Source: Corallococcus exercitus (GTDB lineage: Bacteria > Myxococcota > Myxococcia > Myxococcales > Myxococcaceae). From it: a stretch of DNA of 64,000 nt. The stretch spans positions 2,847,281-2,911,280 of the forward strand of contig NZ_CP102577.1 in NCBI RefSeq assembly GCF_042231735.1, written 5' to 3'. The position numbers and the translations under genes are program-made. The notes under the pieces are model-generated. The model was not told the origin of the DNA, made no database searches, and saw nothing but the letters and a program-made list of their open reading frames with translations. Within the stretch, counting starts at the first letter, position 1, and the number at the start of each line of letters is the position of its first letter. Of the stretch, positions 6,072 through 61,901 are shown in pieces.

Positions 6072-6860
6072 TCAGCTCACCGGGACGTGCAGGGACAGCT
6101 CGGCCGGCGTGAGGATTTCACAGCCGTCGCGGGTGACGAGCACGGTGTGCTCGAACTGGGCGGACAGGCTGCCGTCCGCGGTCACGATGGTCCACCCGTC
6201 CGGCATCATCCGGATGTCCGGGCGCCCCAGGTTCACCATGGGTTCAATGGTGAGGACCATCCCCGAGCGCAGCGTGATGCCGGTGCCCGCCTTCCCCACG
6301 TGCGGGACGTGCGGCTCCCCGTGCATCTGCCGGCCGATGCCGTGGCCCCCGAACTCCTCCACCACGCTGCACCCCTCCGCCTTCGCCAGCGCCATCACCG
6401 CCGCGCCGATGTCCCCCAGCCGCGCGCCGTGCCGCACCACCGACACGCCCACGTCCCGGCACCGCCGCGCCACGTCCACGACGTGCCTGGCGTCGGCGGA
6501 GACCTCGCCAATCATGAACGTGGCGGACGTGTCGCCGTGGAAGCCGTCCAGGTGCGTCGTCACGTCCACGTTGATGATGTCCCCGGGCTTGAGCACTTCA
6601 TCCGCGCGCGGGACGCCGTGGCACACCACGTGGTTGCGGCTGGTGCACACCGTGGAGGGGAAGCCCTTGTACCCAAGCTGGCTCGGGGTGCCGCCCCGCC
6701 GCGCCGTGTCCTCGCGAACCCACGCGTCGATGTCCGCCGTCGTCACGCCTGGCTGGAGCCGCGAGCCCACATGCGCCAGCGTGCCCGCCGCCGCGCGGCC
6801 CGCGAGCCGCAGCCGTTCCACTTCACTGCCCTTGAAGAGAGGGATGCCCATGCCGGGCAA
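6072..6860 (-). CDS. map: Type I methionine aminopeptidase
   Basis: Full-length match to MAP type I (pita-bread fold). Metal ligand residues are in conserved context: DIINVDVTTHLDGFHGDTSATF, HGIGRQMHGEP, LTIEPM, FEHTVLVT. Confidence 0.9.
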   Translation of the reverse strand: MPGMGIPLFKGSEVERLRLAGRAAAGTLAHVGSRLQPGVTTADIDAWVREDTARRGGTPSQLGYKGFPSTVCTSRNHVVCHGVPRADEVLKPGDIINVDVTTHLDGFHGDTSATFMIGEVSADARHVVDVARRCRDVGVSVVRHGARLGDIGAAVMALAKAEGCSVVEEFGGHGIGRQMHGEPHVPHVGKAGTGITLRSGMVLTIEPMVNLGRPDIRMMPDGWTIVTADGSLSAQFEHTVLVTRDGCEILTPAELSLHVPVS

Positions 6861-6876
6861 GGTGGCACCCGCCCTT

Positions 6877-6900
6877 CCAGAACGTCCAATGCTGTTCTGG
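6877..6900. promoter_or_regulatory. Dyad-symmetric element CCAGAAC-N10-GTTCTGG in the divergent map / LysR-fragment intergenic region (T-N11-A-like LTTR operator candidate)
   Basis: The inverted repeat ccagaac gtccaatgct gttctgg is seen directly in the sequence. It lies about 17 bp upstream of the map start and about 55 bp upstream of the HTH-only LysR ORF. Confidence 0.25.
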
Positions 6901-6952
6901 CATCACGCGGGCGCGTGCACGGCGCGCACGTCCCGCGCTAGCATCCGCGCGC

Positions 6953-7246
6953 GTGAGCATCACGCACCTCCAGTCCTTCGTCGCGGTGGCGGAAGAGGGC
7001 CACGTGGGCCGGGCCGCGCGCCGGCTGCACATCACCCAGCCGCCGCTCAGCCGTCACATCCTCGCCCTGGAGGACGAGCTGGGCACGCCCCTCTTCGAGC
7101 GCGTTCCCAAGGGCATGCGCCTGTTGCCCACCGGCGAGGCCCTGCTCCAGCACGCGCGCCGCATCCTCGCGGAGGTGGAGGTCGCCACCCGCACCGTGCG
7201 CGAGGCGGCCCGCGGCTCCGGGGACCCCAAGCCGCCTCCCGCCTGA
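6953..7246 (+). pseudogene. Truncated LysR-family regulator: only the N-terminal wHTH domain (97 aa) is present and the effector-binding domain is missing
   Basis: MSITHLQSFVAVAEEGHVGRAARRLHITQPPLSRHILALEDELGTPLFER... is the canonical LTTR HTH. The ORF stops after about 95 aa, and the helicase gene on the opposite strand ends 4 bp later, leaving no room for a substrate-binding domain. Confidence 0.4.
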
Positions 7247-7249
7247 CGG

Positions 7250-9811
7250 CTACGACCAGGCGGCCATGCCGCCAATGCGGCGCAGCATCAGGATGGGGCC
7301 GTCGTCCATGCGCCGGCCGCGCAAATCAATCTCGCAGTCGATGACCCAGTCCCCATGGCCCTCGGGGTCCATGATGCGCTGCTGGGCCTCCCACTGGCGC
7401 GTGCCCGTCTCCTTGAGCTGCGTGTTCGCCGGCTTGCGCGCCTGGGGCGTGAGCACCACCAGCTTGTGCTCCTCGAAGTACGGCGCCATGGCCTGCTCCA
7501 GCTTCGGCGCGGTCCACTCCCCCAGCGCGTTGTCCAGCATGCCCAGCGCGTCCAGGAAGCGGCGCTGGCCCAGCGCGCGCAGCAGCCGGTGCAGCTCCTC
7601 GCGCACGCGCGCGGCGAAGGCCCGGGGGTCCTCCGTGAGCTCCTTGGGCTTCAGGTCCACCACCGGCTTCACTTCGACCGGGGCCTCCGGGTTGCGCATC
7701 CGCTCCCACTCGTCCAGGAGGCTGGAGTCCACCTGCCGCAGCGTCGCGCGCAGGTGGTCGATGATGTCGTCCAGGTCCTCGTTGCGGAACTTCTCCGGTA
7801 CCGTCTGCACCAGCGACTTGTAGACGTCCCCCACGTAGCGCAGCAGCACGCCCTCGCTGCGCTGCAGGCCGTACTCACGCACGTAGTCGTGGAAGGACAT
7901 GAAGCGCTCGAACATGTCCCGGACGATGGACTTGGGCCGGATGTTCTCCTCGCCCACCCACGGGTGCTTCTTCGCGAAGGCGTTGAAGGTGCCGTAGACG
8001 AACTCGCGGTTGGGCTTGGGCCACTCCAGCTTCTCCAGCTCCTCCATGCGGTCGTCGTACTCCACGCCCCGCGCCTTCATCTCCTGGATCTTCTCTCCCT
8101 TCAGCTGGTGCAGCTGCGCGTACAGCACCACCTCCGGGTTCTCCAGGATGGACTCCACCAGCGTGACGACGTCCAGCGCGTACGTCTCCAGCGTGGGATC
8201 CAAGAGTTCCAGCGTCTCGTGCAGGTACAGGGACAGCGTGTGGTTGAGGCTGAAGTCGCGCTGCAGGTCCTCGGACACCTCCACCGTCGCGGAGTGCTTC
8301 TCCCACTGCACCACCTTCACGATGCCCGCGTCGCGCAGCGTGCGGAAGTACATCGCCGCGTCCTTGAGCAGCTTCTTCTTCGTGTAGTCGGAGCTGTGCG
8401 AGCGCATCACCAGCTGCACCAGCCGCTTGTAGCCGCCGCTGCCCTCCGTCTTGTCGCTCTGGAGCAGGTTGAGCAAGAGGCCGTGGCTCACGTCGAAGCG
8501 CGACTCCAGCGGCTCCGGCAGCCCGTTCTGGAGCCGCTCGAAGGTGCTCTTGTCGTACTGCACGAAGCCCTTCTGCGGCGGCTTCGCCTTGGGCGACTTC
8601 TTCTTGCCCGCGGCCTCCTTCGCTGCCTGGCGGATGTTTTCAATCATGTACTCCGGGGCCTGCGCCACCACGCTGCCCTCGGTGTCGAAGCCCTTGCGGC
8701 CCGCGCGGCCGGCGATCTGCTTGAAGTCGCGCACGCTCAACGTCGCCAGCTTCTCGCCGTTGAACTTGAACAGCTGCGTGAAGAGCACCGTGCGGATGGG
8801 GATGTTCACGCCCACGCCCAGCGTGTCCGTGCCGCTGATGACCTTGAGCAGGCCCTGCTGCGCCAGCTTCTCCACCAGCAGCCGGTACTTGGGCAGGAGG
8901 CCCGCGTGGTGCATGCCGATGCCGTGGCGCAGGTAGCGCTGGAAGTCCTTGCCGTAGGGCGTGTCGAAGGGGGCGTCCAGCAGCGCCTGGCGGATCTCCT
9001 CCTTCTCTTCCTTCGTGTTGAAGTCCACGGACATCAGGTTTTGCGCCTGCTCGGCCGCGGCCCGCTGCGTGAAGTTCACCAGGTACACGGGGTACTTCCC
9101 GCGCGCGATGAGGTCCTGGATGGTCTCGTGCAGCGGCACCTCGCGGTAGTCGAAGTCCAGCGGCACGGGGCGCTCGGAGCTTCGCACCGTGGCCACCTCG
9201 CGGCCGGTGAGCTTCGCCAGGCTCTGCTCGATGACGTGCGTGTCGCCCAGCGTGGCGGACATCAGCAGGAACTGCGTCCTGGGCAGCGCCAGCAGCGGAA
9301 TCTGCCAGGCCACCCCGCGCTCCTTGTCGGAGTAGTAGTGGAACTCGTCCATCACCACCGCGTCCACGCGCGCGGACGCGTCGCGCAGCGCGAGGTTGGA
9401 CAGGATCTCCGCCGTGCAGCAGAGGATGGGCGCCTCGCGGTTGATGGACGCGTCGCCCGTGAGCATGCCCACGTTCTCCGGGCCGAAGGCCTTGGAGAGC
9501 GCGAAGAACTTCTCGTTCACCAGCGCCTTGATGGGGCACGTGTAGAACGACACCTTGCCCTCGGCCATGGCCTTGAAGTGGAGCGCCATGGCGACGAGCG
9601 ACTTGCCGGAGCCGGTGGGCGTCTTGAGGAACAGGTGCTTGTCGCTCAGGAGTTCCAGGATGGCCTCCTCCTGGGCGGAGTACAGGCTCAGCCCGTTCGT
9701 GGCCACGTAGCTCACGAAGCGGTTGAGGATCTCATCGGCGTCGAGACGGGGCTCACCGGGCCTGGGCAGCAGGGCGGCGAGCGGGGCGCGGGTGTCGGCG
9801 GAGGCACTCAT
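7250..9811 (-). CDS. DEAD/DEAH-box (Ski2-like, DExH) helicase with a long C-terminal domain (DUF3516-like)
   Basis: Walker A TPTGSGKSLVA, DEFH box (VVMDEFHYY), SAT motif (LMSATLGD), and a helicase C-terminal block (LLKVISGTDTLGVGVNIPIRTVLF, QIAGRAGRKG). The protein is 853 aa. Confidence 0.75.
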   Translation of the reverse strand: MSASADTRAPLAALLPRPGEPRLDADEILNRFVSYVATNGLSLYSAQEEAILELLSDKHLFLKTPTGSGKSLVAMALHFKAMAEGKVSFYTCPIKALVNEKFFALSKAFGPENVGMLTGDASINREAPILCCTAEILSNLALRDASARVDAVVMDEFHYYSDKERGVAWQIPLLALPRTQFLLMSATLGDTHVIEQSLAKLTGREVATVRSSERPVPLDFDYREVPLHETIQDLIARGKYPVYLVNFTQRAAAEQAQNLMSVDFNTKEEKEEIRQALLDAPFDTPYGKDFQRYLRHGIGMHHAGLLPKYRLLVEKLAQQGLLKVISGTDTLGVGVNIPIRTVLFTQLFKFNGEKLATLSVRDFKQIAGRAGRKGFDTEGSVVAQAPEYMIENIRQAAKEAAGKKKSPKAKPPQKGFVQYDKSTFERLQNGLPEPLESRFDVSHGLLLNLLQSDKTEGSGGYKRLVQLVMRSHSSDYTKKKLLKDAAMYFRTLRDAGIVKVVQWEKHSATVEVSEDLQRDFSLNHTLSLYLHETLELLDPTLETYALDVVTLVESILENPEVVLYAQLHQLKGEKIQEMKARGVEYDDRMEELEKLEWPKPNREFVYGTFNAFAKKHPWVGEENIRPKSIVRDMFERFMSFHDYVREYGLQRSEGVLLRYVGDVYKSLVQTVPEKFRNEDLDDIIDHLRATLRQVDSSLLDEWERMRNPEAPVEVKPVVDLKPKELTEDPRAFAARVREELHRLLRALGQRRFLDALGMLDNALGEWTAPKLEQAMAPYFEEHKLVVLTPQARKPANTQLKETGTRQWEAQQRIMDPEGHGDWVIDCEIDLRGRRMDDGPILMLRRIGGMAAWS

Positions 9812-10005
9812 CGGCCCCCGACTCTAGGGGGTGCCGCCCGGTCCCCGGGAAAAATCACGCGTCCCACGCCCCTCCCGGTGCCCGGACAGGCTCCCTGGCT
9901 GCCCGGCCTGTGCACCCGGGCACATTGGCAACGGCTGAAGCGCGCATGGCCACGGACGGAACGCCTCCCCATCCTGCCCCCGCGACATTCACGGGGGGTT
10001 GAGAC

Positions 10006-10635
10006 ATGCGGACAGCGAAATTCTGGGTGGGGACGGTGCTGGCGGGCGCGCTGGCGCTTGGCTACGGGTGCGGGAGCAACGCGGAGAATCCCGCGCCACA
10101 GGAGGCACCGCAGCAGGGCCCGGACGCGGGGACCGACGCGGGCGTGGTGTTGACGCTCACCGACGCGCAGATCGCGCGGATCCTGCAGGTGGCCAACGAG
10201 GGCGAGGTGATGCTCGGCCAGTACGCCGCGCCGCTTGCCACCGACCCGGACATCCGGGCCTTCAACGAGGAGATGGTCACCGAGCACACCGCCGTCAAAG
10301 AACGGCTGGACGCGCTGCTCGCCACCGAGGGCATCGTCCCCGAGGACACCGCGCTGAGCCTCCAGCTGCAGATGGAAGTCCAGCAGATGATGCAGGTCCT
10401 CCAGGGGCCGAACGCGCCCACGGGCGCCGCGCTCGACCTGGCGCTCATCAGCGCCCAGCTCAACGCGCACGCGCGCACCGCCTTCATCGGCGACAGCCTG
10501 CTCACACCGCAGGTCGCCAACCCGGCCCTGGCGCAGGAGCTGGAGAGCGAACGGCAGGCGGTGCAGATGCACATTGACGAGGCGACGGACCTCCAGTCCG
10601 AGCTGGTGCTGCCGCCCGCCGTGCCCGTGCCGTAG
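10006..10635 (+). CDS. DUF4142-like secreted lipoprotein (copy 1 of a tandem pair)
   Basis: Signal peptide with lipobox LALGYGC. The conserved core is LTDAQIARILQVANEGEVMLGQYAAPLATDPDIRAFNEEMVTEHTAVKERLDALL. The DUF4142 assignment is recalled from memory, not searched. Confidence 0.55.
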   Translation: MRTAKFWVGTVLAGALALGYGCGSNAENPAPQEAPQQGPDAGTDAGVVLTLTDAQIARILQVANEGEVMLGQYAAPLATDPDIRAFNEEMVTEHTAVKERLDALLATEGIVPEDTALSLQLQMEVQQMMQVLQGPNAPTGAALDLALISAQLNAHARTAFIGDSLLTPQVANPALAQELESERQAVQMHIDEATDLQSELVLPPAVPVP

Positions 10636-10820
10636 TCCGTTTCATCCTGCCGCCGGAACTCACGGGCGCGCCGGCTTCGAGAGCGGCTCGCCGGGCTCCG
10701 GCGGCAGGGCGGTGGGAGGGGATGTGGGCTGAGCCACACTGCCATTGGCTGATCCGCAAGTGGTCACCGGACAAGGCGCTCCCCATCCTGGCCAGGCGAC
10801 ATTCACTGCGAGGGGGGAAC

Positions 10821-11489
10821 ATGCGGACAGCGAAGTTCTGGGTGGGGGCGGTGGTGGCTGGCGCCGTGGCGCTGGGGTTCGGGTGCAGTGACGACGACGA
10901 GCCCAACTTTGGCAGTGTCCCGGGCATGCCGGACCTGGAGGACAACCCGGACGCGGGCACCGATGCCGGAACGACCGATGCCGGAACGACCATTGAAGTG
11001 GGGACGATCCTGTCGCTCACCGACGCGCAGATCGCCCGTGTCCTGCAGGTGGCCAACGAGGGCGAGGTGATGCTCGGCCAGTACGCCGCGCCGCTTGCCA
11101 CCGACCCGGACATCCGGGCCTTCAACGAGCAAATGGTCGCGGAGCACACCGCCGTCAAAGAACGGCTGGACGCGCTGCTCGCCACCGAGGGCATCGTCCC
11201 CGAGGACAACCCCGTGAGCCTCCAGCTGCAGAAGGAGGTCCAGCAGTTGATGGACGTCCTCCAGGGGCCGAACGCGCCCACGGGCGCCGCGCTCGACCTG
11301 GCGCTGATCAGCGCGCAGCTCAACGCGCACGCGCGCACCGCCTTCATCGGCGACAGCGTCCTGACGGCCCAGACGGACAACCCGCAACTGGCGCAGGAGC
11401 TCCTGACCGAGCGGACGGAGGTGCAGGAACACATCGAGGAGGCGCGCGACCTCCAGTCGCGCCTGGTGACGCCTCCCACCACGCCGTAG
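10821..11489 (+). CDS. DUF4142-like secreted lipoprotein (copy 2 of a tandem pair)
   Basis: The start is placed at the internal MRTAKFWVGAVVAG (lipobox LGFGCS), not the track start at 10722. It is near-identical to copy 1 over the core of about 130 residues. Confidence 0.55.
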   Translation: MRTAKFWVGAVVAGAVALGFGCSDDDEPNFGSVPGMPDLEDNPDAGTDAGTTDAGTTIEVGTILSLTDAQIARVLQVANEGEVMLGQYAAPLATDPDIRAFNEQMVAEHTAVKERLDALLATEGIVPEDNPVSLQLQKEVQQLMDVLQGPNAPTGAALDLALISAQLNAHARTAFIGDSVLTAQTDNPQLAQELLTERTEVQEHIEEARDLQSRLVTPPTTP

Positions 11490-11645
11490 CCCGGAACACC
11501 TGGGGCGTTGCACCGTTGGATAAAATATCGGCTCGGGCTCTCAGAACGTGAGAGCCCGGGCCCGCGCACACGACCCGTGGGGGAGGATTCGACCCGGGTG
11601 CTTTCCAATCGTGTCGGCCCGGTTTAGTAGGAAATCGGACCGCCG

Positions 11646-13319
11646 ATGCAAAAGCCTACCGAACCGACCTCCGCGCAGTCCGAGCCGTTGACGACGGGAC
11701 GGATTCTGCGCGCCACGTATGAGATTGGCACCGTGCTGGGCAAGGGCGGCATGGGGGCGGTGTTCCTCGCCCGCCATCTGCGCCTGCCGGGCAAGCAGGT
11801 CGCCGTCAAGGTGCTGCACGGCGCGGAGGCGCTGTCGGAAGAGGTGGCGGTGCGCTTCCGGCGCGAGGCGGAGATCGCCTCCCGGCTGGGGCACCCGAAC
11901 ATCGTGGAGGTGCTGGACTTCGACACCCTGGAGGACGGCACGCCCTTCATGGTGATGGAGTACCTGCGCGGCGAAGGCCTGTCGCGCCGGCTGCGCAAGC
12001 AGAAGCAGCTGCCCCTGGAGGAGGTCTTCTCCATCGCGCGGCAGATGGGCGCGGCGTTGCAGGCGGCGCACCGCGCGGGCGTGGTGCACCGCGACCTGAA
12101 GCCGGGCAACGTGTTCCTCGTGCCCACGGAGGCCGGCGGCGTCGTGGGCGAGCGCGTGAAGCTGCTCGACTTCGGTATCTCCAAGCTCGTGGACTCGCGC
12201 ACCGTGCAGACGCTGGACTCGGTGCTGATGGGGACGCCGCAGTACATGGCCCCCGAGCAGGCCATGGGCCAGAACAGCAACGTGGACGCGCGCACGGACC
12301 TGTTCGCGTTCGGCTGCATCGTCTACGAGATGCTCGCGGGCCGGCCGCCCTACTCCGGCGACAACGTCGCGGAGCTCATCTACCAAATCGTCCACCTGGA
12401 GCCGCCGCCGCTGCTGACGCTGGCGCCGGGCACGCCGCCGCACGTGGTGGCGGCCATCTCCCGCGCGATGGCGAAGAAGCCGGAGGACCGCTACCCGGAC
12501 GTGGGCTCCTTCATCCTGGAGCTGACGGGCAGCCCGCTCCAGACGCTCTCCGAAATGAAGCCGGAGCAGCGCTCGCGCCCCACCACGCCCACGGCCCCGC
12601 CCCCGGTGTCGCGTCCGCCGGATCAGGAGGAGCACATCCCCACGGTGGGCATGCGCCCCCACGCCGGCCGCGACGCGTCCCCCTCCGGCCCCCAGACCGC
12701 GTCCCTGCCCGCGCAGCCCCTGGCAAGCCCCCGCCCGAAGTGGCCGGTGGCCGTGGCCGTGGGCCTGACGGTCATCATCGCGTTCGCCGTCGCCTTCTTC
12801 TGGAAGGGCGCGGGCACGACCCCGCCCACCGTCGTCGCGGCGAATCCGCCCGCGCCCACCGCCCCCGTCGCGGCGCCGCCCGTTGCCCCGCCCGTCGCGG
12901 CCGTGACGCAGCCCGTGGAGCAGAAGCAGCCCGTGGATGCTCCGGTGGATCCGGAGGCCCAGCCGCCGCGGCAGGTGGCTCCCGAGGAGAAGCGGCCGTC
13001 CGTGGAGCCGGCGGACACGCCCGCGGTGACGCCCAGGCCCAAGGCGCGCGGCGGCGCGACCGAGTCGATGCCGGACAGCGTGCGCGAGGACCTGGCGTCC
13101 GCGCAGAAGGCGCTGGACGCGTCGAACACGTCGGAAGCGCTGCGTCACATCCGGCGCAGCCAGCGCACGAAGATCACCGGCCTGTCGTTCTCGCTGCTCA
13201 CCCGCGTGTACTGCCAGCAGCACGACCTGGCGAACGCGCGAGCACAATGGACCCGGGTCCCGGCAACGGAACGTCCCAGGGTCCGACAATACTGTTCGCA
13301 GTACGATATCGACCTCTAG
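11646..13319 (+). CDS. Eukaryotic-like Ser/Thr protein kinase (Pkn family) with a Pro/Ala-rich linker, a TM segment and a C-terminal extracytoplasmic domain
   Basis: All catalytic motifs are intact: Gly loop GKGGMGAV, VAVKVL, HRDLKPGNVFL, DFGISK, YMAPEQ. A TM segment WPVAVAVGLTVIIAFAVAFFW follows the linker. Confidence 0.85.
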   Translation: MQKPTEPTSAQSEPLTTGRILRATYEIGTVLGKGGMGAVFLARHLRLPGKQVAVKVLHGAEALSEEVAVRFRREAEIASRLGHPNIVEVLDFDTLEDGTPFMVMEYLRGEGLSRRLRKQKQLPLEEVFSIARQMGAALQAAHRAGVVHRDLKPGNVFLVPTEAGGVVGERVKLLDFGISKLVDSRTVQTLDSVLMGTPQYMAPEQAMGQNSNVDARTDLFAFGCIVYEMLAGRPPYSGDNVAELIYQIVHLEPPPLLTLAPGTPPHVVAAISRAMAKKPEDRYPDVGSFILELTGSPLQTLSEMKPEQRSRPTTPTAPPPVSRPPDQEEHIPTVGMRPHAGRDASPSGPQTASLPAQPLASPRPKWPVAVAVGLTVIIAFAVAFFWKGAGTTPPTVVAANPPAPTAPVAAPPVAPPVAAVTQPVEQKQPVDAPVDPEAQPPRQVAPEEKRPSVEPADTPAVTPRPKARGGATESMPDSVREDLASAQKALDASNTSEALRHIRRSQRTKITGLSFSLLTRVYCQQHDLANARAQWTRVPATERPRVRQYCSQYDIDL

Positions 13320-21467: not shown

Positions 21468-21515
21468 GGGGCTCCTGGCCTGGAGGGGACGTGTGGGAAA
21501 GGATGGGTGCCTAGC

Positions 21516-22505
21516 ATGAGGACTCCAGGGCAGGAACATCGCGGCGCGCTTCACGGAGAGGACGTGCGGCACTGGGAGGCGCCCCTTCCGGGAGGCCGGG
21601 TGCGGCTGTCGCTCCGGGTGGACGCCGGGACACGGGCCGTCCTGGACGCGGCGTGGGAGGCCCCGGAGTCCGTGGGCGCGGGCCATCCGCTGGCGGCGTG
21701 CCTGGAGTCGCTGTGTCAGAACGCGGTGGGCATCGGGGTGGACGTGTTCCTGCGCTTCGACGACTTCCACCTGCGGGCGGGCTGTCCGGAGGGGCTGGAG
21801 GCGACGGAGGAGGCGGGGCTGGCGGTGCGGGTGTTCCGCTTCGCGTTCAGCCAGTTCCATCCCCGGGCCACCGGGCCGGCGTACCTGTCGAGCGGGCTGG
21901 TGCTGGCGAAGCTGCCCCGGGGCACGCGGCCGGAGTGGGAGGAGCCGGGGTTCTACTTCGCGCACTACTACCGCGAGGAGCTGTGGCCCGAGGCGGTGGA
22001 GGAGGCGCGGAGGGGCGGTGTGCTGGGGCCGCGCGCGGCGTGCGCGTACATCGATGCGCTCTTGGCGAAGGCGGACGACACGGTGGAGCTGGACTGGCCC
22101 GTGGAGCAGGGCACGGCGACCTGGGAGTGGCTGACGCGCGTCTGTCTGCCGTCGGTGACCGGGAGCGAGGAGCGGACGCGGCAGCTGCTGGAGGGCGGCT
22201 ACGGGGGCACGAGCGGCACGGGGAGCTTCTCCTTCGGCCACCTGGACGGAGGGCCGTGGCGTCCCCCGGAGGGCCTGCCGGAGCCAGAAGACGTGGGGCA
22301 CGCGGAGTTCATCCTCGGGGACCTGGAGCACCTGCTGCCGGAGCTGCCGAAGGACGGTGTGCTGCTGGCCGCGCCCCGCTGGATGGCGGTGGGACAGACG
22401 CGCGATTCACCCGCGCTGCGCCGGGCCGACATTTCGAGCGAGGAGGCGGGAGGCTTCGGCCTGTTCAACGCGGCCGCGCATGACGTGGGCGAGGACGATG
22501 ATTGA
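21516..22505 (+). CDS. Hypothetical protein
   Basis: 330-aa in-frame ORF starting MRTPGQEHRG with host-like GC. Its stop overlaps the start of the next gene (ATGATTGATATG). Confidence 0.4.
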   Translation: MRTPGQEHRGALHGEDVRHWEAPLPGGRVRLSLRVDAGTRAVLDAAWEAPESVGAGHPLAACLESLCQNAVGIGVDVFLRFDDFHLRAGCPEGLEATEEAGLAVRVFRFAFSQFHPRATGPAYLSSGLVLAKLPRGTRPEWEEPGFYFAHYYREELWPEAVEEARRGGVLGPRAACAYIDALLAKADDTVELDWPVEQGTATWEWLTRVCLPSVTGSEERTRQLLEGGYGGTSGTGSFSFGHLDGGPWRPPEGLPEPEDVGHAEFILGDLEHLLPELPKDGVLLAAPRWMAVGQTRDSPALRRADISSEEAGGFGLFNAAAHDVGEDDD

Positions 22506-22506
22506 T

Positions 22507-23238
22507 ATGCGACTGCTGGGCGCGGTGATGGCCCTGCTGAGTCTGTCGTGTGCCTCGGGCCCGGCGCGCTATGCGCAGTCGACGGACTCCGCGACGAACG
22601 GATGCTTTCGCAATCCCACCTGTTACACGCAGCCGGGGGATGAGGCGTTCCTTCCATGGGTGGACAAGGCCGCCAGGGCGGCGGCCACCGCGGGGGCGAC
22701 GCTGAAGGTGCTGGAGGCGGCGGACGTAGCCCTCATCGAGCACCTGCTTGTGGAGTGCTCCAAGGAAGCGAACCGCGTGGTCAATGAACGCGAGTACGGC
22801 GAGGGGAAATACCCGGACGACAAGGAGTGCTTGCGGGTGGTTGGCCAGGACAAGGACGGCAAGCCCCTTCGACGGCAGGCCGAACTCGGAACGCTGAAGC
22901 ACGAGTTTGCCTTCGCATGCGTGCGGCGTGAAATTCTCCGGCGCTTCCCCAACAACGTTTCGATTGAGCCGAGCTATGTGGTCCGCCCGCGTAGAGCGGC
23001 GCAACAACCGGAACTCATGAAGCCCGACGTCGTCCTTCACGCCTCGGGCCGGCCGGATCAGGTCCAATGCGTTTATGACTTCAAGTTTCCATGCCTCAAG
23101 GCACGCAAGAGCGATCCGCTCTCGGTCCAAGAAACGAAGGATCAGCTCCGCCGGTACACGGACCTCGAAGGGCAATGCAATCCCGCCATCATCACACCTC
23201 AGCTAGGGATCATTCGTGGACAGCTACACTCCCTCTGA
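22507..23238 (+). CDS. Secreted protein or lipoprotein of unknown function with a PD-(D/E)xK-like motif. It sits in lower-GC DNA.
   Basis: Signal peptide MRLLGAVMALLSLSCASG. It contains ...KPDVVLHASGRPDQVQCVYDFKFPC (PD then D-x-K about 17 aa later), plus several conserved Cys and acidic residues. Composition is visibly lower in GC than the flanks. Confidence 0.45.
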   Translation: MRLLGAVMALLSLSCASGPARYAQSTDSATNGCFRNPTCYTQPGDEAFLPWVDKAARAAATAGATLKVLEAADVALIEHLLVECSKEANRVVNEREYGEGKYPDDKECLRVVGQDKDGKPLRRQAELGTLKHEFAFACVRREILRRFPNNVSIEPSYVVRPRRAAQQPELMKPDVVLHASGRPDQVQCVYDFKFPCLKARKSDPLSVQETKDQLRRYTDLEGQCNPAIITPQLGIIRGQLHSL

Positions 23239-24220
23239 ACATTTCGCGATGACGCTCCCCAGGGTCCAGCTGGTCCTGCGCATCGTCTTCTATCTGCCGC
23301 ATGACCATGGCGTGGTGGCACCGGTCGTACGACGTCTCCTCGATATCTATCTCGCATTCATCGCAGCCAGTGGCGGAGCACTGACAACAGGAGAGGATCC
23401 CGACATCAGTGAGGCTCCTTTCCCACTCACTCCTGCTACCTGGGAGGAGGTCCACCAGGAACTGAAGAAGGCTCGTTTTGGCCCAATGGAAGACAGGGAT
23501 CAAGACTCCATCTGGTTCCGCATCTTGACCAAGAGGGGCTTCGATACACTCGTCCATCTCACGGGCGGAGAGTCGGACCCCAGTGGCTATGAATTCAGCT
23601 TCCGCTCCCGGCTCCCCTGGCGAGAACCCTCTGGTGAGTACAGCGTCCTGAGCGTGAAGGTCCCCATGCAGTTCCTGGAGGACCAGGGGCCTGAGAAGGC
23701 CTTTGAGCTGGCACGGGCGCTGGCGGAGCCACTTCCCTTCTCCACGGGTCATGCGGGGCTGTCGCTGTCATTCACCCGTGGCAGGTCCAGACTCCTTCCC
23801 CTCCTCAAGGACCATCTGGTCCGGCATCCCGGCTGGGATGTTCCACGCGAGAGCACATGGGGCATGGAAGAAGGGATCGACGGCATCCACTGGATGACCT
23901 TTCTGGGAGCTCCCCTCCTGGACACCCTGGGGGGGCCCGAGGCGATCCGCGCCCGGTTGCAGCATCCGGAGACCACCGTGCAGGAACTCACCGGGAGCCG
24001 TGCCCTGATCCGCCTGGGCCCCGCGCCCCTGGCGGGAGACACGAAGCTGGGTGAAACGCTGCCGGCGTACCGCGAGCTGGCCCGGTTCCTGGAACCGTGG
24101 CTCCAGCCCTCCCCTCCCTTCACCTCCTTCGAGGGCTACACACCGGAGGAGATGCGCCAGTGGTGGCGCCGCTTCCTGGAGCCGCCCCCAGCGGCAATCT
24201 CCAATCCACGCGAGGGATGA
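23216..24220 (+). CDS. Hypothetical protein; its start overlaps the previous gene by 23 bp. It is a possible immunity-like partner, which is inference only.
   Basis: 334-aa ORF beginning MDSYTPSEHF with no signal peptide. It has the same lower-GC composition as the upstream gene and is translationally coupled to it. Confidence 0.45.
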   Translation: MDSYTPSEHFAMTLPRVQLVLRIVFYLPHDHGVVAPVVRRLLDIYLAFIAASGGALTTGEDPDISEAPFPLTPATWEEVHQELKKARFGPMEDRDQDSIWFRILTKRGFDTLVHLTGGESDPSGYEFSFRSRLPWREPSGEYSVLSVKVPMQFLEDQGPEKAFELARALAEPLPFSTGHAGLSLSFTRGRSRLLPLLKDHLVRHPGWDVPRESTWGMEEGIDGIHWMTFLGAPLLDTLGGPEAIRARLQHPETTVQELTGSRALIRLGPAPLAGDTKLGETLPAYRELARFLEPWLQPSPPFTSFEGYTPEEMRQWWRRFLEPPPAAISNPREG

Positions 24221-24349: not shown

Positions 24350-27300
24350 ATGCGGTCACAACGCGCTGTCTGGAGCGGGCTCCTGCTGTTCGTCGCGAGC
24401 CTGGGCCTTCTGTCCTGCGGCGGGAACGAGCGCCCGGCACCGGAGGGCGCCCGCTCGGTGCACTCCCGCTTGGCGACTCCGCCGGACTGGTACACCACCG
24501 CGTCCATGGCGACGGCCCGCGCGCAACACGCGGCCGTCCTGCTCCCGGACGGCAGACTGCTGGTCGTCAACGGCACCAACCAGGCCGGGTTCGCGACCAC
24601 GGCGGAGCTGTATGACCCCGCCACCGGAGCCTGGACCCCCGCGGGCAGCCCCGGGATTTCGGGCAACGTCACGCTGGCCCTGCTGCTGCCCACCGGCAGG
24701 GTGCTGGTGCTGACCGAGGGCTCCCTTTCGGGACGTCTCTACGACCCCGCGACGGGCGCCTGGACCGCCACGGGCAACATGTCCGCCATCCGCGGCCTCC
24801 CGACCGCCACGTTGCTGGGCACGGGGCAGGTGCTGGTCGCGGGCGGCAACAGCGACGGCGGCGTCCGGCTCACGTCCGCGGAGCTGTATGACCCGGCCAC
24901 CAACGCCTTCGTTCCCACCGGCGCCATGACCCTGGGCCGCAACGCGCACAGCGCCACGCGGCTGCGCGACGGGCGGGTGCTCGCGGTGAGCGGCTTCAAC
25001 CAGGCCGACGAGGTGCCCGGCGCGGACCTCTACAACCCCGCGACCGGCACCTGGACCGCCGTCGCGCCCCCGCTGGTCCCCCGCCACTATTCCTCCAGCA
25101 CCCTGCTCCCCGACGGCCGCGTGCTCGTCGCGGCTGGCTTCGCGGCGGGCGGCGCGACGACCCATTCCGAGCTCTACGACCCGGCGGCCAACACCTGGAC
25201 CGCCACGGGCAGCCTCGCGTTCCCGCGCTATGGCCATATGGCCACGCTGCTTCCCAACGGCCGCGTCCTCGTCACCGGTGGCAGCGTCTTCAACGCGGCG
25301 CCGCAGCTCGAGTCGGAAATCTATGATCCCGCCACCGGCACCTGGACCCCCGCGGGCACGATGAATGTCGGTCGCACCAACCACACCGCGACGCTGCTGC
25401 CGACTGGCAAGGTGTTCATCGCGGGCGGCTCCGCCGCGGTCCCGGCCGGGACCTACTTCGCGCAGACGGAGGTCTACGACCCCGCCGTGAGCCGGTGGTC
25501 GCCCGCGGGCGCCATGGGCACGCCCCGGACCGACGCGATGGTGGCGCTGCTGCCCTCGGGCCAGGTGCTCGTCGCGGGCGGCCGCGGCCAGTTCACCTCG
25601 TCGGACGCGGCGGAGCTGTACAACCGCGCGAGCAACTCGTGGTCCGCCCTGCCCGCGCTCGCCACGCCGCGCGAGCGCGCCACCGCCACCGTGCTGCCTT
25701 CGGGGCAGGTCCTGGTCGCGGGCGGCCGCAACACCAACACCTCCACGGCCTCCGTGGAGCGCTTCGATCCCACCACCAACACCTGGCTGCCCACCGCGAC
25801 GCTCGCGGGCACGCGTCACCTGCACACCGCCACGCTCCTGCCGGATGGCCGGGTGCTCGTCGCCGGTGGCCAGAGCAACACCACGGTGCTCGCCACCGCG
25901 GAGCTGTATGCGCCTGACACGAACACGTGGACCTCGGCCGGCTCGCTCGCCACGGCGCGCGCCGGACATCGCGCCGTGCTGCTCCAGGACGGCCGGGTGC
26001 TCGTCGCCGGCGGTCACGGCGGCGGCGGCTCGGAGCTGGCCTCGGCGGAGCTCTTCAACCCCGCCACCAACACCTGGGCCCCGGCGGCGAGCCTCGCGGG
26101 CGCCCGCGACGAGCTGACGCTGACGCTGCTGCCGTCGGGCCAGGTGCTCGCGGCGGGCGGTATCGCGGCCTTCACGGAGCTCACGAGCACGGAGCTGTAC
26201 ACGCCCGGCACGAACACCTGGGCTTCCGTGGGCGCGCTGACGCAGTCGCGCTGGCTGCACTCCGCCTCGCTGATGCCCAACGGCAAGGTGCTGGTCGCGG
26301 GCGGCATCACCACGAATGGCGACTACGCCAACACGGCGGAGGTCTACGACCCGCTCCTCCGCCGCTGGCTCAACGTCGCGGACCCCACCACCGCGGGAGG
26401 CCTGGTCACCGTCGCCCTGCCCTCGGGCGAGGTCCTGCTGTCGGGCGGCCTCAACACCCCCAACGCCGAGCTGTTCGACGACACCGGCGCCCTCCCCGCG
26501 TGGCGGCCCACGGTGACGAACCCGGCGACCCTCGTCGCCGGCTGCCCCACCGTCCTGGAGGGCCTGCTGTTCCGCGGCATCTCCGGTGCAAGCGCTGGCA
26601 ACAGCACCGACTCCCCCACCGACTTCCCCCTGGTGCGGCTGCGAGGCGCCGAGGGCGGCCGCCTCTGGACGCTCCCCAGCAGCAGCACCTCGGACACCCG
26701 CGCGACGGTGACGGTCCCCGCCGGCACGCCGCTGGGCACCTACGGGCTGTCCGTCTTCGCCAACGCCATCCCCGGCGGACGCATGGTGACGCTCGTCGCC
26801 AACCGTCCCCCGACGGCGGCGGACCAGACGGTCACCGTCCCGAAGGACACCGAAGTGGAGCTCGCCCTGGCCGGCACGGATCCGGACCCCGGCCAGGTGC
26901 TGACCTGGACGGTCGTCACCCAGCCGCAGCACGGCACGCTCGGCACCAGCGCGGCGGGGCACCTGGTGTACACGCCCGAGCCCGGCTACGTGGGCCCCGA
27001 CAGCTTCACCTTCCGCGTTCGTGACTGCGCCGACGACAGCAACGTCGCGACGCTGACCCTCAACGTGGTGGACGCCGTCCCGACCCTCACCTGTCCCGCG
27101 AACGTCACCGTGGAGGCCACGGAGGCGGACGGCGCCGTCGTGAACTACGACCCCGCGGTGCTGGATCCCGCGGGGCTCCCGGTGAGCTACACGCAGGCGT
27201 CGGGCTCGCGCTTCCCGCTGGGCACCACGACGGTCACCGCGACCTCCACGGGCCTCACCTGCACGTTCCAGGTGACGGTGCAGGACACCACGGCCCCCGC

Positions 27301-27640
27301 GCTGACCTGCCCCGCCGACATCCTGGTGGGCCCGGGTGAGCCGGTGACGTTCGAGCCCACGGCCACGGACGCGGTGACGGCCTCGCCGACGGTGACGTCG
27401 TCGCCCGCGTCGGGCAGCACCTTCGCGCCGGGCGCCACGCAGGTCACCGTCACCGCCACGGACGCCGCGGGCAACACCGCGCAGTGCACGTTCCAGGTCC
27501 GGGTCCAGGCGGAGGTCGTGGAGATCGCCGGCGGTGGCTGTGACAGCACCGGCGGCACCACGTCCGCGCTGGCGCTCCTCGCCGCGCTGGCGGCCTGGAG
27601 TCATTCGCGCCGCCGTCAGAACCCGGCCCGGGGGAACTGA
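24350..27640 (+). CDS. Large cell-surface protein: lipoprotein signal, 12 or more Kelch/galactose-oxidase-type beta-propeller repeats, tandem HYR (hyalin-repeat) domains and a C-terminal MYXO-CTERM sorting signal
   Basis: Signal MRSQRAVWSGLLLFVASLGLLSCGG. A roughly 50-aa repeat ELYDPATG(A/T)WT...G...R..H.A.LL.DGRVLV(A)GG recurs many times. The HYR-like segments are PTLTCPANVTVEATEADGAVVNYDP and TAPALTCPADILVGPGEPVTFEPTATD. The C-terminal GGGCDSTGGTTSALALLAALAAWSHSRRRQ matches MYXO-CTERM. Confidence 0.8.
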   Translation: MRSQRAVWSGLLLFVASLGLLSCGGNERPAPEGARSVHSRLATPPDWYTTASMATARAQHAAVLLPDGRLLVVNGTNQAGFATTAELYDPATGAWTPAGSPGISGNVTLALLLPTGRVLVLTEGSLSGRLYDPATGAWTATGNMSAIRGLPTATLLGTGQVLVAGGNSDGGVRLTSAELYDPATNAFVPTGAMTLGRNAHSATRLRDGRVLAVSGFNQADEVPGADLYNPATGTWTAVAPPLVPRHYSSSTLLPDGRVLVAAGFAAGGATTHSELYDPAANTWTATGSLAFPRYGHMATLLPNGRVLVTGGSVFNAAPQLESEIYDPATGTWTPAGTMNVGRTNHTATLLPTGKVFIAGGSAAVPAGTYFAQTEVYDPAVSRWSPAGAMGTPRTDAMVALLPSGQVLVAGGRGQFTSSDAAELYNRASNSWSALPALATPRERATATVLPSGQVLVAGGRNTNTSTASVERFDPTTNTWLPTATLAGTRHLHTATLLPDGRVLVAGGQSNTTVLATAELYAPDTNTWTSAGSLATARAGHRAVLLQDGRVLVAGGHGGGGSELASAELFNPATNTWAPAASLAGARDELTLTLLPSGQVLAAGGIAAFTELTSTELYTPGTNTWASVGALTQSRWLHSASLMPNGKVLVAGGITTNGDYANTAEVYDPLLRRWLNVADPTTAGGLVTVALPSGEVLLSGGLNTPNAELFDDTGALPAWRPTVTNPATLVAGCPTVLEGLLFRGISGASAGNSTDSPTDFPLVRLRGAEGGRLWTLPSSSTSDTRATVTVPAGTPLGTYGLSVFANAIPGGRMVTLVANRPPTAADQTVTVPKDTEVELALAGTDPDPGQVLTWTVVTQPQHGTLGTSAAGHLVYTPEPGYVGPDSFTFRVRDCADDSNVATLTLNVVDAVPTLTCPANVTVEATEADGAVVNYDPAVLDPAGLPVSYTQASGSRFPLGTTTVTATSTGLTCTFQVTVQDTTAPALTCPADILVGPGEPVTFEPTATDAVTASPTVTSSPASGSTFAPGATQVTVTATDAAGNTAQCTFQVRVQAEVVEIAGGGCDSTGGTTSALALLAALAAWSHSRRRQNPARGN

Positions 27641-36446: not shown

Positions 36447-37961
36447 TTGGCCTGGGGGTGGCTGATGGATCAGGTCATGGTGTGGGCGCCGCTGGCGTTG
36501 TTGTTCGCCGGCCTGTGGTTCCGGTCCCGCAGGCGGGTCCGTGACCTCCAGAAGCGGTTCAAACCCATCGTGGACGTTGAAGCTGAAAAGCAGCGGATCT
36601 CCGAAGAGATTGCGCACACACAGCTCGCGGCCACACTGGCGCGCGAAGCCGAGCGTCATCGAGCGGCCCAGGAAATCGCGGAGATCCGCAATGCCGCCGC
36701 GTTGGCCACTGCCGCGGAGCAGAAGCAGGTGGCCGCAGAATGTCACCGCATGCAGGAGGAGGCTTCGCGGGCAACAATAGCCGCCGCGCGGTCCGTGAAG
36801 GACGCGGAAGAGCAACGCCAGACGCTGATCAAGGAACAACAAGATCTGAAAGCCACCATCGCGCGATTGCGCGAAGAGCTTCGCCCCCTGGATGAAGAAG
36901 CGTTTCTCCTCTCCACGGGCTTCTACAAGCCGATCTATGCCTTCTCCTCTGTCGAGGAGTACGAACGCCGCCTGCAGGAGCTTCGCGAAAAGCAGAAGTC
37001 CATGTTGCAGGACAAGCGCGCTGCGACTTGTTCCATCGAGTGGGAGGTCAATGGGAGCAAGGCTGAGGGCAAGAGGCAGACGGAACGAACGCTGAAGCTG
37101 ATGCTTCGTGCGTTCAACGGCGAGGCCGACGCATGTGTCTCGAAGGTGACCTACAAGAACATCAAGACCATGGAAGCGCGCATCGAGAAAGCTGCGGATG
37201 CGATCAATGGCCTGACGAAGATCCAGAGTTGTACCATCGCGAGCCAGTATGTCGCCTTCAAGCTGGACGAACTGCGCCTTGCCCACGAGTACGCTGAGCG
37301 GATCCAACAGGAGCGCGACGAGCAGAAGCGCATTCGCGAGCAGATGCGCGAGGAAGAGGCGGCGCAGCGGGAGTTGGAGAAGGCGAAGCTGGAAGCAGAG
37401 CGCGAGGCGAAGCGAGACGCCGAGTCCTTGGCGAAGGCGAAAGCGGACTACGAGAAGGCCAAGGGCTCCGAACAGCAGAAGCTTCTGGAACGCATCGCGG
37501 AACTGGAGCGCCGCGTCGCCGAGGATCTGGAGAAGCAGCGAGCCATCTCCCAGGCCCAGCTCACACGGACGGGGCACGTCTATGTCATCTCAAACATCGG
37601 CTCGTTCGGAGAAGGCATTTTCAAGCTGGGGATGACCCGAAGGCTGGTGCCCCAGGACCGCATCGACGAACTGGGAGACGCCTCGGTGCCATTCGAGTTC
37701 GACGTCCACGCCATCATCCGGACCTCGGATGCGCCAGCGCTGGAGAGTGCCCTGCACCGAACCTTCGCGAACCGGCGCGTTAATCGCATCAACGAGCGCA
37801 AGGAGTTCTTCCGCGTCAGCCTGGAGGAAATCGCTGAGGCCGTGCGAAAACACCATGGTGAGTTTGAATTAACCTGGATTGCCGAAGCTGCGGAGTACCG
37901 GAAGTCACTGGCGCTACGGGAAGACGACAATAGCACCCAGTCACAACAAACCGCAGCGTGA
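36447..37961 (+). CDS. DUF4041-type protein with an N-terminal TM helix, about 330 aa of coiled coil, and a C-terminal T5orf172 / GIY-YIG-like (MUG113) domain. It sits in a low-GC islet.
   Basis: TM is VMVWAPLALLFAGLWF. A long E/K/R/A/Q-rich heptad-like region follows. The DUF4041-like core is STGFYKPIYAFSSVEEYERRLQELREKQK...KLMLRAFNGEADACVSKVTYKNIKTMEARIEKAADAINGL. The C-terminus is TGHVYVISNIGSFGEGIFKLGMTRRLVPQDRIDELGDASVPFEFDVHAIIRTSDAPALESALHRTFANRRVNRINERKEFFRVSLEEI, typical of T5orf172. Domain names are from memory. GC is clearly below the host level. Confidence 0.65.
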   Translation: MAWGWLMDQVMVWAPLALLFAGLWFRSRRRVRDLQKRFKPIVDVEAEKQRISEEIAHTQLAATLAREAERHRAAQEIAEIRNAAALATAAEQKQVAAECHRMQEEASRATIAAARSVKDAEEQRQTLIKEQQDLKATIARLREELRPLDEEAFLLSTGFYKPIYAFSSVEEYERRLQELREKQKSMLQDKRAATCSIEWEVNGSKAEGKRQTERTLKLMLRAFNGEADACVSKVTYKNIKTMEARIEKAADAINGLTKIQSCTIASQYVAFKLDELRLAHEYAERIQQERDEQKRIREQMREEEAAQRELEKAKLEAEREAKRDAESLAKAKADYEKAKGSEQQKLLERIAELERRVAEDLEKQRAISQAQLTRTGHVYVISNIGSFGEGIFKLGMTRRLVPQDRIDELGDASVPFEFDVHAIIRTSDAPALESALHRTFANRRVNRINERKEFFRVSLEEIAEAVRKHHGEFELTWIAEAAEYRKSLALREDDNSTQSQQTAA

Positions 37962-38001
37962 GACACGAATCACCTAACAGCGATCAGCTTCCTCTGCGAC
38001 A

Positions 38002-38838
38002 ATGACACAGGCTCTTCCAACACCCGATGACGTCCCTCCTCCAGGCGTTATGAGATGGCTCATCTCCTGCGACGAATCCGGAACAGGCGGCTCGCCCTTC
38101 TACGGCTTCGGAACACTCTGGATGAACTGGCAAAGGCGTGGAAACTTCTCCGAACTCATCCAGGATCTTCGAGAGAAACATAAGTACGAATTTGAAATCA
38201 AATGGAACAAAGTCTCCGGCAGGAATTTGCCATTTTATCGAGACTTGGTGGAAGCCTTCTTCAAGACCAGCTGGATGCACTTTCACTGCATAGTCGTGAA
38301 ACAGGCAGACGTGCGTTTAGATTTCCACGATCGAGACTGGGATCTTGCGCGCCGAAAGCACTTCACCATGCTCCTGACCAACAAGATCAGGCGCTGCCTC
38401 ACCAAGAATCCCAATCGAGATTTGACGTTTCGAATATGGGTTGACCCCATTGCCTCACGCTACAAAAAGGCCAATGAAGCGGTGGAGATTATCGCCAACA
38501 ACGCACTCCAACAGGTTTTCAAGCGACTCCGCCCCGTCGACAAGGTCATTACTCGCGATTCGCGCGACACTCCAAGCATTCAGCTTTGCGATCTCCTCCT
38601 CGGCGCGGTGATGGAAGGTTGGCAGCGAAAGTCCGACTCCGAGTCCAAGCAGGAGCTGCGCGAATGGATTGCTGAACACCTTGGTTGGGACGACTTGGCG
38701 AACGACACACACAGAGACGAAACGAAGTTCAACATCTGGTATTTTCACGATCCGATATCAAAACCCAAGCGATCCGCCCTCACGCGTCCCGTCAAATTGA
38801 GATACCCACTGCCAACCGGCAAACGGCGTCGTTCGTAG
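38002..38838 (+). CDS. DUF3800 family protein, in the low-GC islet directly downstream of the DUF4041/T5orf172 gene
   Basis: The N-terminal MRWLISCDESGTGGSPFYGFG (DESG hallmark) and the distal SIQLCDLLLGAVMEG (QLxDL motif) match my recollection of DUF3800. About 50% GC by eye, with AT-rich codons (aaa, gaa, ttt) that are rare in the flanking genes. Confidence 0.6.
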   Translation: MTQALPTPDDVPPPGVMRWLISCDESGTGGSPFYGFGTLWMNWQRRGNFSELIQDLREKHKYEFEIKWNKVSGRNLPFYRDLVEAFFKTSWMHFHCIVVKQADVRLDFHDRDWDLARRKHFTMLLTNKIRRCLTKNPNRDLTFRIWVDPIASRYKKANEAVEIIANNALQQVFKRLRPVDKVITRDSRDTPSIQLCDLLLGAVMEGWQRKSDSESKQELREWIAEHLGWDDLANDTHRDETKFNIWYFHDPISKPKRSALTRPVKLRYPLPTGKRRRS

Positions 38839-61713: not shown

Positions 61714-61788
61714 TGGAGCGGGAAAAGGGATTTGAACCCTCGACCCTCGCCTTGGCAAGGCGATGCTCTACCGCTGAGCTATTCCCGC
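61714..61788 (-). tRNA. tRNA-Gly (anticodon GCC), CCA encoded
   Basis: Reverse complement is GCGGGAATAGCTCAGCGGTAGAGCATCGCCTTGCCAAGGCGAGGGTCGAGGGTTCAAATCCCTTTTCCCGCTCCA. The cloverleaf is folded by eye, with anticodon loop TTGCCAA. Confidence 0.9.
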
Positions 61789-61826
61789 ATCTGGTGCCGC
61801 TGAACGACCGTACCGCTGACTGCTTT

Positions 61827-61901
61827 TGGAGCGGGAAAAGGGATTTGAACCCTCGACCCTCGCCTTGGCAAGGCGATGCTCTACCGCTGAGCTATTCCCG
61901 C
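61827..61901 (-). tRNA. tRNA-Gly (anticodon GCC), identical second copy, CCA encoded
   Basis: 75 nt identical to the copy at 61714-61788, separated by a 38-bp spacer. Confidence 0.9.

Follow-up and report, generated by a model that had tools for sequence, protein, structure and literature searches.

The window analysed here is a 64-kb stretch of the Corallococcus exercitus chromosome, in whose numbering all positions are given. On its plus strand lie two overlapping genes of deviant composition. Gene 1 (22498..23238) is predicted from its open reading frame (ORF), its sequence and the PADLOC PDC-M20A model to encode the 246-aa precursor of a lipoprotein toxin, and gene 2 (23216..24220) is predicted from Pfam PF11876, its fold and the PADLOC PDC-M20B model to encode a 334-aa cytoplasmic immunity protein of the TsiV/DUF3396 family. 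We conclude that the two are very probably a toxin/immunity pair. An earlier note on this DNA had raised that reading as possible, and it is now supported by the TsiV partner and by reuse of the nuclease domain on PAAR-like type VI secretion (T6SS) effectors and on a SitA6-type lipoprotein.

A lipoprotein gene overlapping a TsiV-family gene

The ATG of gene 1 at 22498 overlaps the TGA of the upstream gene (22503-22505) within ATGATTGA, so the start on the upstream stop codon described earlier is confirmed; NCBI places the start three codons downstream, at 22507, giving a protein of 243 aa. Gene 2 begins with a GTG at 23216 and ends at 24220, and this start is supported because the N terminus of the family aligns from residue 1. 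The two ORFs share 23 nt (23216..23238, plus strand), from the gene 2 start to the gene 1 stop, and this overlap couples them translationally. A scan for promoters and terminators found none inside the pair, which says nothing about transcription. The window contains this pair only, and a second gene 1 paralogue (P0277) lies elsewhere in the same genome.

A hypothetical protein of C. exercitus matches the gene 1 product at 100%, whereas Pfam, NCBIfam, PDB and PHROGs contain no sequence match to it. Its N terminus, MIDMRLLGAVMALLSLSC followed by ASG (LSLSC, then ASG), is a lipoprotein signal, in which a signal peptide and lipobox (22498..22551, plus strand) run to Cys18 (codon 22549-22551). Across the 90 family members used for all gene 1 conservation figures, Cys18 is kept in 92%, and the residue after it is A, G, V, S or T and never K; UniRef labels orthologues that share this N terminus 'Lipoprotein'. 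The protein had been called secreted, and while its export signal stands, it is more exactly a lipoprotein. Because it carries no inner-membrane retention residue, we expect it to be sorted to the outer membrane.

Downstream of the lipobox, a family-specific region (22552..22734, plus strand), delimited by conservation and by the predicted local distance difference test (pLDDT) score, harbours the Cys-loop motif YAQSxDSATxGCxRNPxC at residues ~24-43 and includes the first part of a long helix. Residues 11-60 are predicted to be disordered (pLDDT 43-65), and Q27, A32, C36, C42 and P53 are 86-96% conserved. Residues ~19-80 are peculiar to the lipoprotein form of the family; the PAAR-like and other fusions described below align only from profile position ~80. 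We speculate that this conserved disordered segment is a candidate minimal delivery ('escort') or entry element.

The remainder of the protein (residues ~80-243; 22735..23226, plus strand) is assigned from predicted fold and motif to a PD-(D/E)xK nuclease toxin domain. Structure prediction, which the earlier note had proposed as a check, gives a PD-(D/E)xK fold with an alpha-beta-beta-beta-alpha-beta core and places the motif on beta2/beta3: D177 precedes the strand 178-181, and D194-F-K196 ends the strand 189-195. The PD...DxK motif (residues 176-196) lies within KPDVVLHASGRPDQVQCVYDFKFPC (residues 175-199), with P176-D177 at 23023-23028 and D194-F-K196 at 23077-23085; they stand 17 residues apart, the spacing first noticed in the sequence. 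Candidate catalytic residues are D177 (23026-23028), D194 (23077-23079) and K196 (23083-23085), together with H135, K134, E157 and H181. The motif is also conserved among homologues, a second check (D177 99%, D194 97%, K196 90%), and four cysteines (87, 111, 141 and 199) are near-invariant. From the predicted model, the C-terminal ~165 residues are a putative metal-dependent PD-(D/E)xK nuclease.

The structural neighbours of the gene 1 model are Cas4/RecB-like, not VRR-Nuc. Neither the Pfam VRR_NUC profile (PF08774) nor a search of the PDB sequences with the family profile linked gene 1 to VRR-Nuc, and we rejected that assignment for want of profile or PDB sequence support. A RecB/Cas4-type QxxxY in alpha2 (Q216/Y220) looks conserved in close relatives, yet occurs in just 38-39 of the 90 sequences and was not used.

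Gene 2 is a TsiV/DUF3396-family protein by sequence and by fold. On PF11876 (TsiV, formerly DUF3396, 'Type VI immunity for VRR-NUC'), where the cut-off is 25 bits, it scores 142.6 (E=2e-41). The 21 gene 2 relatives taken from other loci match PF11876 as well (21 of 21), and the family profile of gene 2 retrieves PA0821 (PDB 7DRG; E=3e-13). An AlphaFold (AF2) model built with database homologues (pLDDT 86.4, predicted template modelling (pTM) score 0.88) has 7DRG as its best Foldseek match (E=4.6e-15, template modelling (TM) score 0.70 over 326 columns), followed by TsiT, the immunity protein of another PD-(D/E)xK effector. The comparison of gene 2 with immunity families that had been proposed thus gives a positive answer. 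NCBI names the protein 'type VI immunity family protein'. The 334-aa length, the overlap with gene 1 and the lack of a signal peptide are as first described, and without a signal peptide the protein is taken to be cytoplasmic. The earlier statement that neither gene could be placed in a named family therefore stands for gene 1, which has no Pfam or NCBIfam match, and falls for gene 2.

Composition and allelic exchange at a conserved chromosomal slot

The lower GC content reported at ~22.5-24.2 kb is borne out in 400-nt windows, with values of 0.573-0.642 at 22.6-23.8 kb against 0.70-0.755 on both sides. Codon usage is atypical in both genes, as claimed: in-frame GC at third codon positions (GC3) is 0.76 in gene 1 and 0.75 in gene 2, compared with 0.89-0.94 in five neighbouring genes, and reaches its minimum (0.54-0.72) across the 3′ half of gene 1 together with the 5′ half of gene 2. 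The pair is poorer in GC than its flanks at all 78 of 78 related loci (mean 0.640 versus 0.698), which makes the dip a family trait and not a matter of chance.

Values of GC and GC3 below those of the neighbours could mark a recently acquired foreign island, and 'islet' was the word used in the earlier note. We find this very improbable and rejected an inserted island. The gene order LysR, DUF2378, Methyltransf_30, 331-aa gene, lipoprotein, TsiV, Kelch, OmpA is kept in C. coralloides and seven other Corallococcus genomes, and all Corallococcus genomes that were examined, among them that of another C. exercitus strain, have the pair in synteny. No tRNA, integrase or convincing flanking repeat was found at the locus, the low GC is family-wide, and the divergent sequence starts and stops inside the two genes. 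The note had held that a pair both syntenic in related genomes and host-like in composition would speak against its reading; the synteny is indeed conserved across Corallococcus, but the composition is deviant, not host-like.

Comparison with eight other Corallococcus loci shows where the divergence lies. The upstream flank is 87-98% identical in nucleotide sequence between species, whereas the pair is 57-85% identical, with the lowest values where gene 1 ends and gene 2 begins. Within the species the contrast is sharper. Against the second C. exercitus strain (L084), a hypervariable block of ~1.1 kb (22830..23940, no strand, approximate breakpoints; ~22.83-23.94 kb) is 52-67% identical, while its flanks are 93-99% identical. 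In the gene 1 protein, residues 1-110 are ~95% identical between the two strains, and residues 111-246, the nuclease core, are 35-80% identical with the catalytic motifs intact; in the gene 2 protein, identity is 30-70% over residues 1-240 and rises to 85-95% over residues 250-334. The block coincides with the GC trough and comprises the nuclease core plus the N-terminal two-thirds of the immunity protein.

Both edges of the divergent block fall within the gene pair, which points to allelic replacement by homologous recombination, not insertion. Synonymous divergence (dS) is 0.52-1.37 in the pair versus 0.08-0.37 in the flanks, with a ratio of non-synonymous to synonymous divergence (dN/dS) of 0.2-0.36; the lower codon bias of the pair may inflate its dS. 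These values indicate alleles that are functional, yet much older than their surroundings or imported into them. Positive selection as the cause of the divergence was rejected, given this dN/dS and a dS 3-5x that of the flanks, which instead suggest old or exchanged alleles. Judging from the alignments, the GC anomaly marks a putative cassette of toxin core and immunity region that homologous recombination has exchanged while its slot stayed fixed. The joint replacement of the toxin core and the N-terminal region of the immunity protein would fit toxin-immunity co-evolution, a fit and not a proof, in which gene 2 would neutralise gene 1.

Family distribution, domain reuse and neighbouring genes

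Relatives of gene 1 were collected from a one-genome-per-species scan (207 relatives) and from a profile search of 1.84 billion representative proteins (208 relatives). From 81 retrieved loci with 93 gene-1-like ORFs, 78 loci were kept. All 207 relatives in the genome scan belong to the Myxococcaceae/Archangiaceae (Corallococcus, Myxococcus, Pyxidicoccus, Archangium, Cystobacter and Vitiosangium), and the database searches extend the family to Hyalangium, Stigmatella and Melittangium. This clade is the one that performs TraAB outer-membrane exchange. The 208 representative proteins are mostly 250-290 aa long and of lipoprotein type.

A TsiV-like ORF lies directly downstream of ~90% of the 93 gene-1-like ORFs, typically with a 4-nt ATGA overlap. 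Among the 78 kept loci, at least 4-6 pairs per genome occur in Archangium minus, A. lansingense and C. terminator. Three lipoprotein-toxin/TsiV pairs stand in direct tandem in Archangium minus Cbm 6 (L071, locus coordinates 6536-11673), and arrays of two pairs are present at L014, L027, L034, L049, L061, L065 and L080; such arrays indicate local duplication and divergence of the cassette. At two Pyxidicoccus loci (L011 and L012, locus coordinates ~8900-10720) the toxin gene has a TsiV-like ORF directly upstream and no detected one downstream; that ORF may be an orphan immunity gene or what is left of a tandem array. In C. coralloides DSM 2259 (L001, locus coordinates 8722-9738) the TsiV gene appears in the public annotation as two pieces, a 241-aa product and a 90-aa antisense ORF; this is probably an annotation artefact, because an intact 338-codon ORF is present.

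The nuclease domain is also mounted on other carriers. In P0158 and P0166 it lies C-terminal to a Tox-PAAR-like domain (E=9e-37 in P0158), which is the architecture of TseV. P0132 belongs to the SitA6 family of lipoproteins (TIGR02269 at 91.6 bits, exceeding the cut-off) and bears a gene 1-type nuclease, and P0116 carries the domain behind a signal peptide and a long N-terminal region. The P0158 locus (L082) reads DUF2169 adaptor, hypothetical gene, PAAR-like-nuclease gene, TsiV, with transposases on its flanks; at the P0132 locus (L083) a TsiV-like ORF (E=1.8e-100) follows with a 4-nt overlap. A nuclease/TsiV partnership kept across delivery systems is a hallmark of polymorphic toxins. Four further proteins (P0155, P0174, P0193 and P0161), probably from non-myxobacterial organisms, have the domain at the C terminus of long coiled-coil or low-complexity N-terminal regions and lack a signal peptide.

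Directly upstream of the pair, a conserved hypothetical gene encoding 331 aa (21510-22505, plus strand) overlaps the start of gene 1 by 8 nt and may be co-transcribed with the pair. It has host-like GC (GC3 0.91), low divergence and no Pfam, NCBIfam, PADLOC or PHROGs match. We considered it as a third, SitB-like component and rejected it, as it is restricted to the syntenic Corallococcus locus (13 matches), host-like in GC and without a family match. Downstream (24350-27640, plus strand) lies the gene for a 1096-aa protein with Kelch repeats and Big_9, cadherin-like and HYR domains, whose N terminus resembles a signal peptide or that of a lipoprotein; its divergence (76-88% nucleotide identity, dN/dS ~0.5) is more rapid than that of the upstream flank. 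Elsewhere in the window, a stronger low-GC islet (36447-38838, plus strand; GC 0.535-0.63) holds two genes: 36447-37961 encodes a protein with DUF4041 plus T5orf172/MUG113 (GIY-YIG-like), and 38002-38838 encodes one with DUF3800. The islet resembles a small insertion of mobile or defence type. A tandem of two tRNA-Gly(GCC) genes (61714-61901, minus strand) also sits in a stretch where GC is locally low.

A probable role in conflict between related bacteria, and competing explanations

We consider it likely that the pair is a polymorphic toxin/immunity module that related bacteria deploy against one another, by the following mechanism. The gene 1 product would be exported by the Sec pathway, lipidated at Cys18 and placed in the outer membrane, while gene 2, translationally coupled to it, would bind and block the nuclease in any cell with a matching allele. 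Since the immunity protein is predicted to be cytoplasmic, the target of the toxin, DNA, should be cytoplasmic as well, and the toxin would have to reach a neighbouring cell and be imported. The likeliest route would be TraA/TraB-dependent outer-membrane exchange, as for the SitA lipoprotein toxins, and we hold delivery by this route to be slightly on the probable side. The short conserved N-terminal segment would serve as the entry ('escort') element, and the imported toxin would cut DNA unless the recipient has the matching TsiV allele. Allele specificity would be maintained by swapping the ~1.1 kb cassette through homologous recombination at the fixed chromosomal slot. Such a cycle would give the pair a role in kin discrimination.

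One close counterpart is SitA/SitI of myxobacteria, with the families SitA1/2, 3, 4, 5, 6 and 7. In these lipoprotein toxins the lipobox is followed by a disordered region, a nuclease lies at the C terminus and an overlapping gene encodes a cytoplasmic immunity protein; a genome has 15-80 such loci (PMC8546572, PMC10433427). The pair resembles them in a lipoprotein whose lipobox Cys precedes a disordered stretch and whose C terminus is a predicted nuclease, in an immunity gene that is directly downstream, overlapping and predicted to encode a cytoplasmic product, and in having many diverged copies per genome over the same taxonomic range. Like SitA4, SitA6 and SitA7, it has a non-modular toxin domain of one fold with many alleles, and SitA6 is likewise a small lipoprotein (TIGR02269 profile, 209 positions; PMC8546572, PMC12077181). 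The immunity protein differs from those of SitI in being TsiV and not SUKH, Imm11 or double-CXXCG, and the pair occupies a conserved chromosomal slot, not Mx-alpha-like elements. Gene 1 has no PF09533/TIGR02269 match and is not of the AHH type found in SitA4, SitA6 and some SitA5 alleles.

SitA7 is described only as a non-modular 'predicted DNase' from M. fulvus HW-1. None of the gene 1 relatives listed comes from M. xanthus or bears an HW-1 locus tag, and no source names any member of the family SitA; this leans weakly against identity of the gene 1 family with SitA7.

Gene 2 connects the pair with TseV2/3-TsiV2/3 of Salmonella bongori and PA0822-PA0821 of P. aeruginosa, whose immunity proteins belong to the same Pfam family, share its fold and are encoded directly downstream of the toxin. 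TsiV proteins have been shown experimentally to be allele-specific immunity proteins for the PD-(D/E)xK/VRR-Nuc T6SS toxins TseV2/3 (PMC9635880). The toxins resemble each other in a D...D-x-K signature 15-17 residues apart (D230...D245-V-K247 in TseV3, D177...D194-F-K196 in gene 1), and distant relatives of the gene 1 nuclease domain carry the N-terminal PAAR-like domain of TseV. Gene 1 itself differs in having a lipoprotein signal and no PAAR or T6SS context, and its nuclease goes unrecognised by Pfam VRR_NUC and has Cas4/RecB-like structural neighbours.

Nuclease colicins and pyocins such as colicin E2-Im2 offer a further parallel, in that a nuclease toxin is closely linked to a cytoplasmic immunity protein specific to its allele, as we predict for the pair. 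The TolB/TonB boxes of colicins engage host import machinery, and the unstructured conserved N-terminal segment of gene 1 could do likewise. The gene 1 toxin differs from colicins in being lipid-anchored instead of released and in having a PD-(D/E)xK and not an HNH fold; it also lacks a receptor-binding or large translocation domain, and there is no lysis gene. A comparison of SitA with colicins has been drawn before (PMC8546572).

Several observations count against a kin-delivered toxin. Gene 1 has just ~60-80 family-specific N-terminal residues in a protein of 246 aa and thus no counterpart of the SitA escort domains of ~375 aa (PMC8546572), although that criterion is not uniformly applied, since SitA6 is also small. 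The locus is chromosomal and syntenic, with no obvious mobile element. K196 is replaced by Y, L or F in 6 of the 90 relatives, with D177 and D194 kept, and such relatives may be inactive or mechanistically variant toxins; in P0056-P0058, from Melittangium boletus and two metagenome assemblies, C192 is lost together with the lysine. The four invariant cysteines suggest disulfides, which would fit a periplasmic or extracellular enzyme just as well as a toxin in transit. Finally, PADLOC lists the pair as a candidate defence system, to which we return below.

An enzyme of the periplasm or exterior is what the most durable alternative proposes, and we consider it unlikely. Gene 1 would be a secreted or surface digestive nuclease acting on prey or extracellular DNA, and gene 2 a self-protecting inhibitor of the barnase/barstar or NucA/NuiA type that guards the cytoplasm of the producer from enzyme folding before export, with no delivery to kin. 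Myxobacteria are predators, and the export signal, conserved cysteines and cytoplasmic partner all suit this role, as do the chromosomal position conserved across the genus and the overall purifying selection (dN/dS as above). A housekeeping enzyme, however, would not be expected in 4-6 or more diverged paralogous pairs per genome and in tandem arrays, or to undergo a within-species swap that changes the enzyme core and the inhibitor together. Mounting of the domain on PAAR-like T6SS effectors and on a SitA6-type toxin also speaks against it, as does the record of TsiV as allele-specific immunity proteins (PMC9635880).

Anti-phage defence is less probable still. Here gene 2 would restrain the nuclease until infection releases it onto phage or host DNA. 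PD-(D/E)xK nucleases are common as defence effectors. The pair matches both PADLOC PDC-M20 models over their full length, as the same two-gene cassette with adjacent genes (PDC-M20A, E=1.6e-61; PDC-M20B, E=3.3e-108). PDC-M20 is one of 145 PADLOC candidates picked by embedding in a BREX, DISARM or restriction-modification (RM) locus, with no mechanism proposed; among its homologous cassettes, one or more sit inside a locus for BREX, DISARM or type I RM (Payne et al., bioRxiv 2024, 10.1101/2024.01.29.577857). PDC systems are, however, explicitly candidates only, for which a single embedded instance sufficed. At this locus, which is what our test covers, the neighbours are LysR, DUF2378, Methyltransf_30, Kelch and OmpA, and no known defence system stands beside the pair. 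The conserved lipoprotein signal takes the nuclease out of the compartment that holds phage DNA, its partner comes from a family of interbacterial immunity proteins, and PHROGs yields no match for gene 1. Taken with the PAAR and SitA6 fusions and the allelic cassette, export and the TsiV partner point to antagonism between bacteria, not phage defence.

A T6SS effector/immunity pair, as the NCBI and Pfam names of gene 2 imply and as homologous nuclease domains on Tox-PAAR-like proteins beside a DUF2169 adaptor might suggest, is hardly credible, because the Sec/lipoprotein signal of gene 1 is conserved family-wide while T6SS effectors are not normally Sec-exported, gene 1 has no PAAR, VgrG, Hcp or adaptor domain, and no T6SS gene is among those identified at ~18-29.4 kb.

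With interbacterial conflict as the preferred reading, we tentatively propose, as a possibility that falls somewhat short of probable, that gene 1 represents an undescribed minimal SitA-like family distinct from SitA7: an outer-membrane lipoprotein of ~245 aa with a conserved, disordered Cys-loop motif of ~35 residues as its element for cell entry, in place of a large escort domain, and an unnamed PD-(D/E)xK domain common to T6SS PAAR effectors, neutralised by TsiV. If so, TsiV would be an immunity family common to T6SS and outer-membrane exchange, two different means of delivery, and PDC-M20 would be an interbacterial toxin cassette placed in the wrong category.

The pair is an uncharacterised member of a well-known type of system, ordinary in social bacteria, of which the host carries dozens. 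Its analysis proposes a function for a gene whose annotation is everywhere 'hypothetical protein', and it delimits a PD-(D/E)xK toxin domain (motif PDxVxH...VYDFKFPC) that has no name and lies outside all Pfam and NCBIfam models. The analysis further offers an alternative reading for PDC-M20, otherwise counted as a defence system in genome surveys. TsiV/DUF3396, named after type VI secretion, also partners Sec-exported lipoproteins that we predict to be toxins, which makes 'type VI immunity family protein' a misleading name in myxobacteria. The two C. exercitus alleles provide a natural, sharply bounded cassette swap with which toxin-immunity specificity and the putative minimal delivery segment may be mapped.

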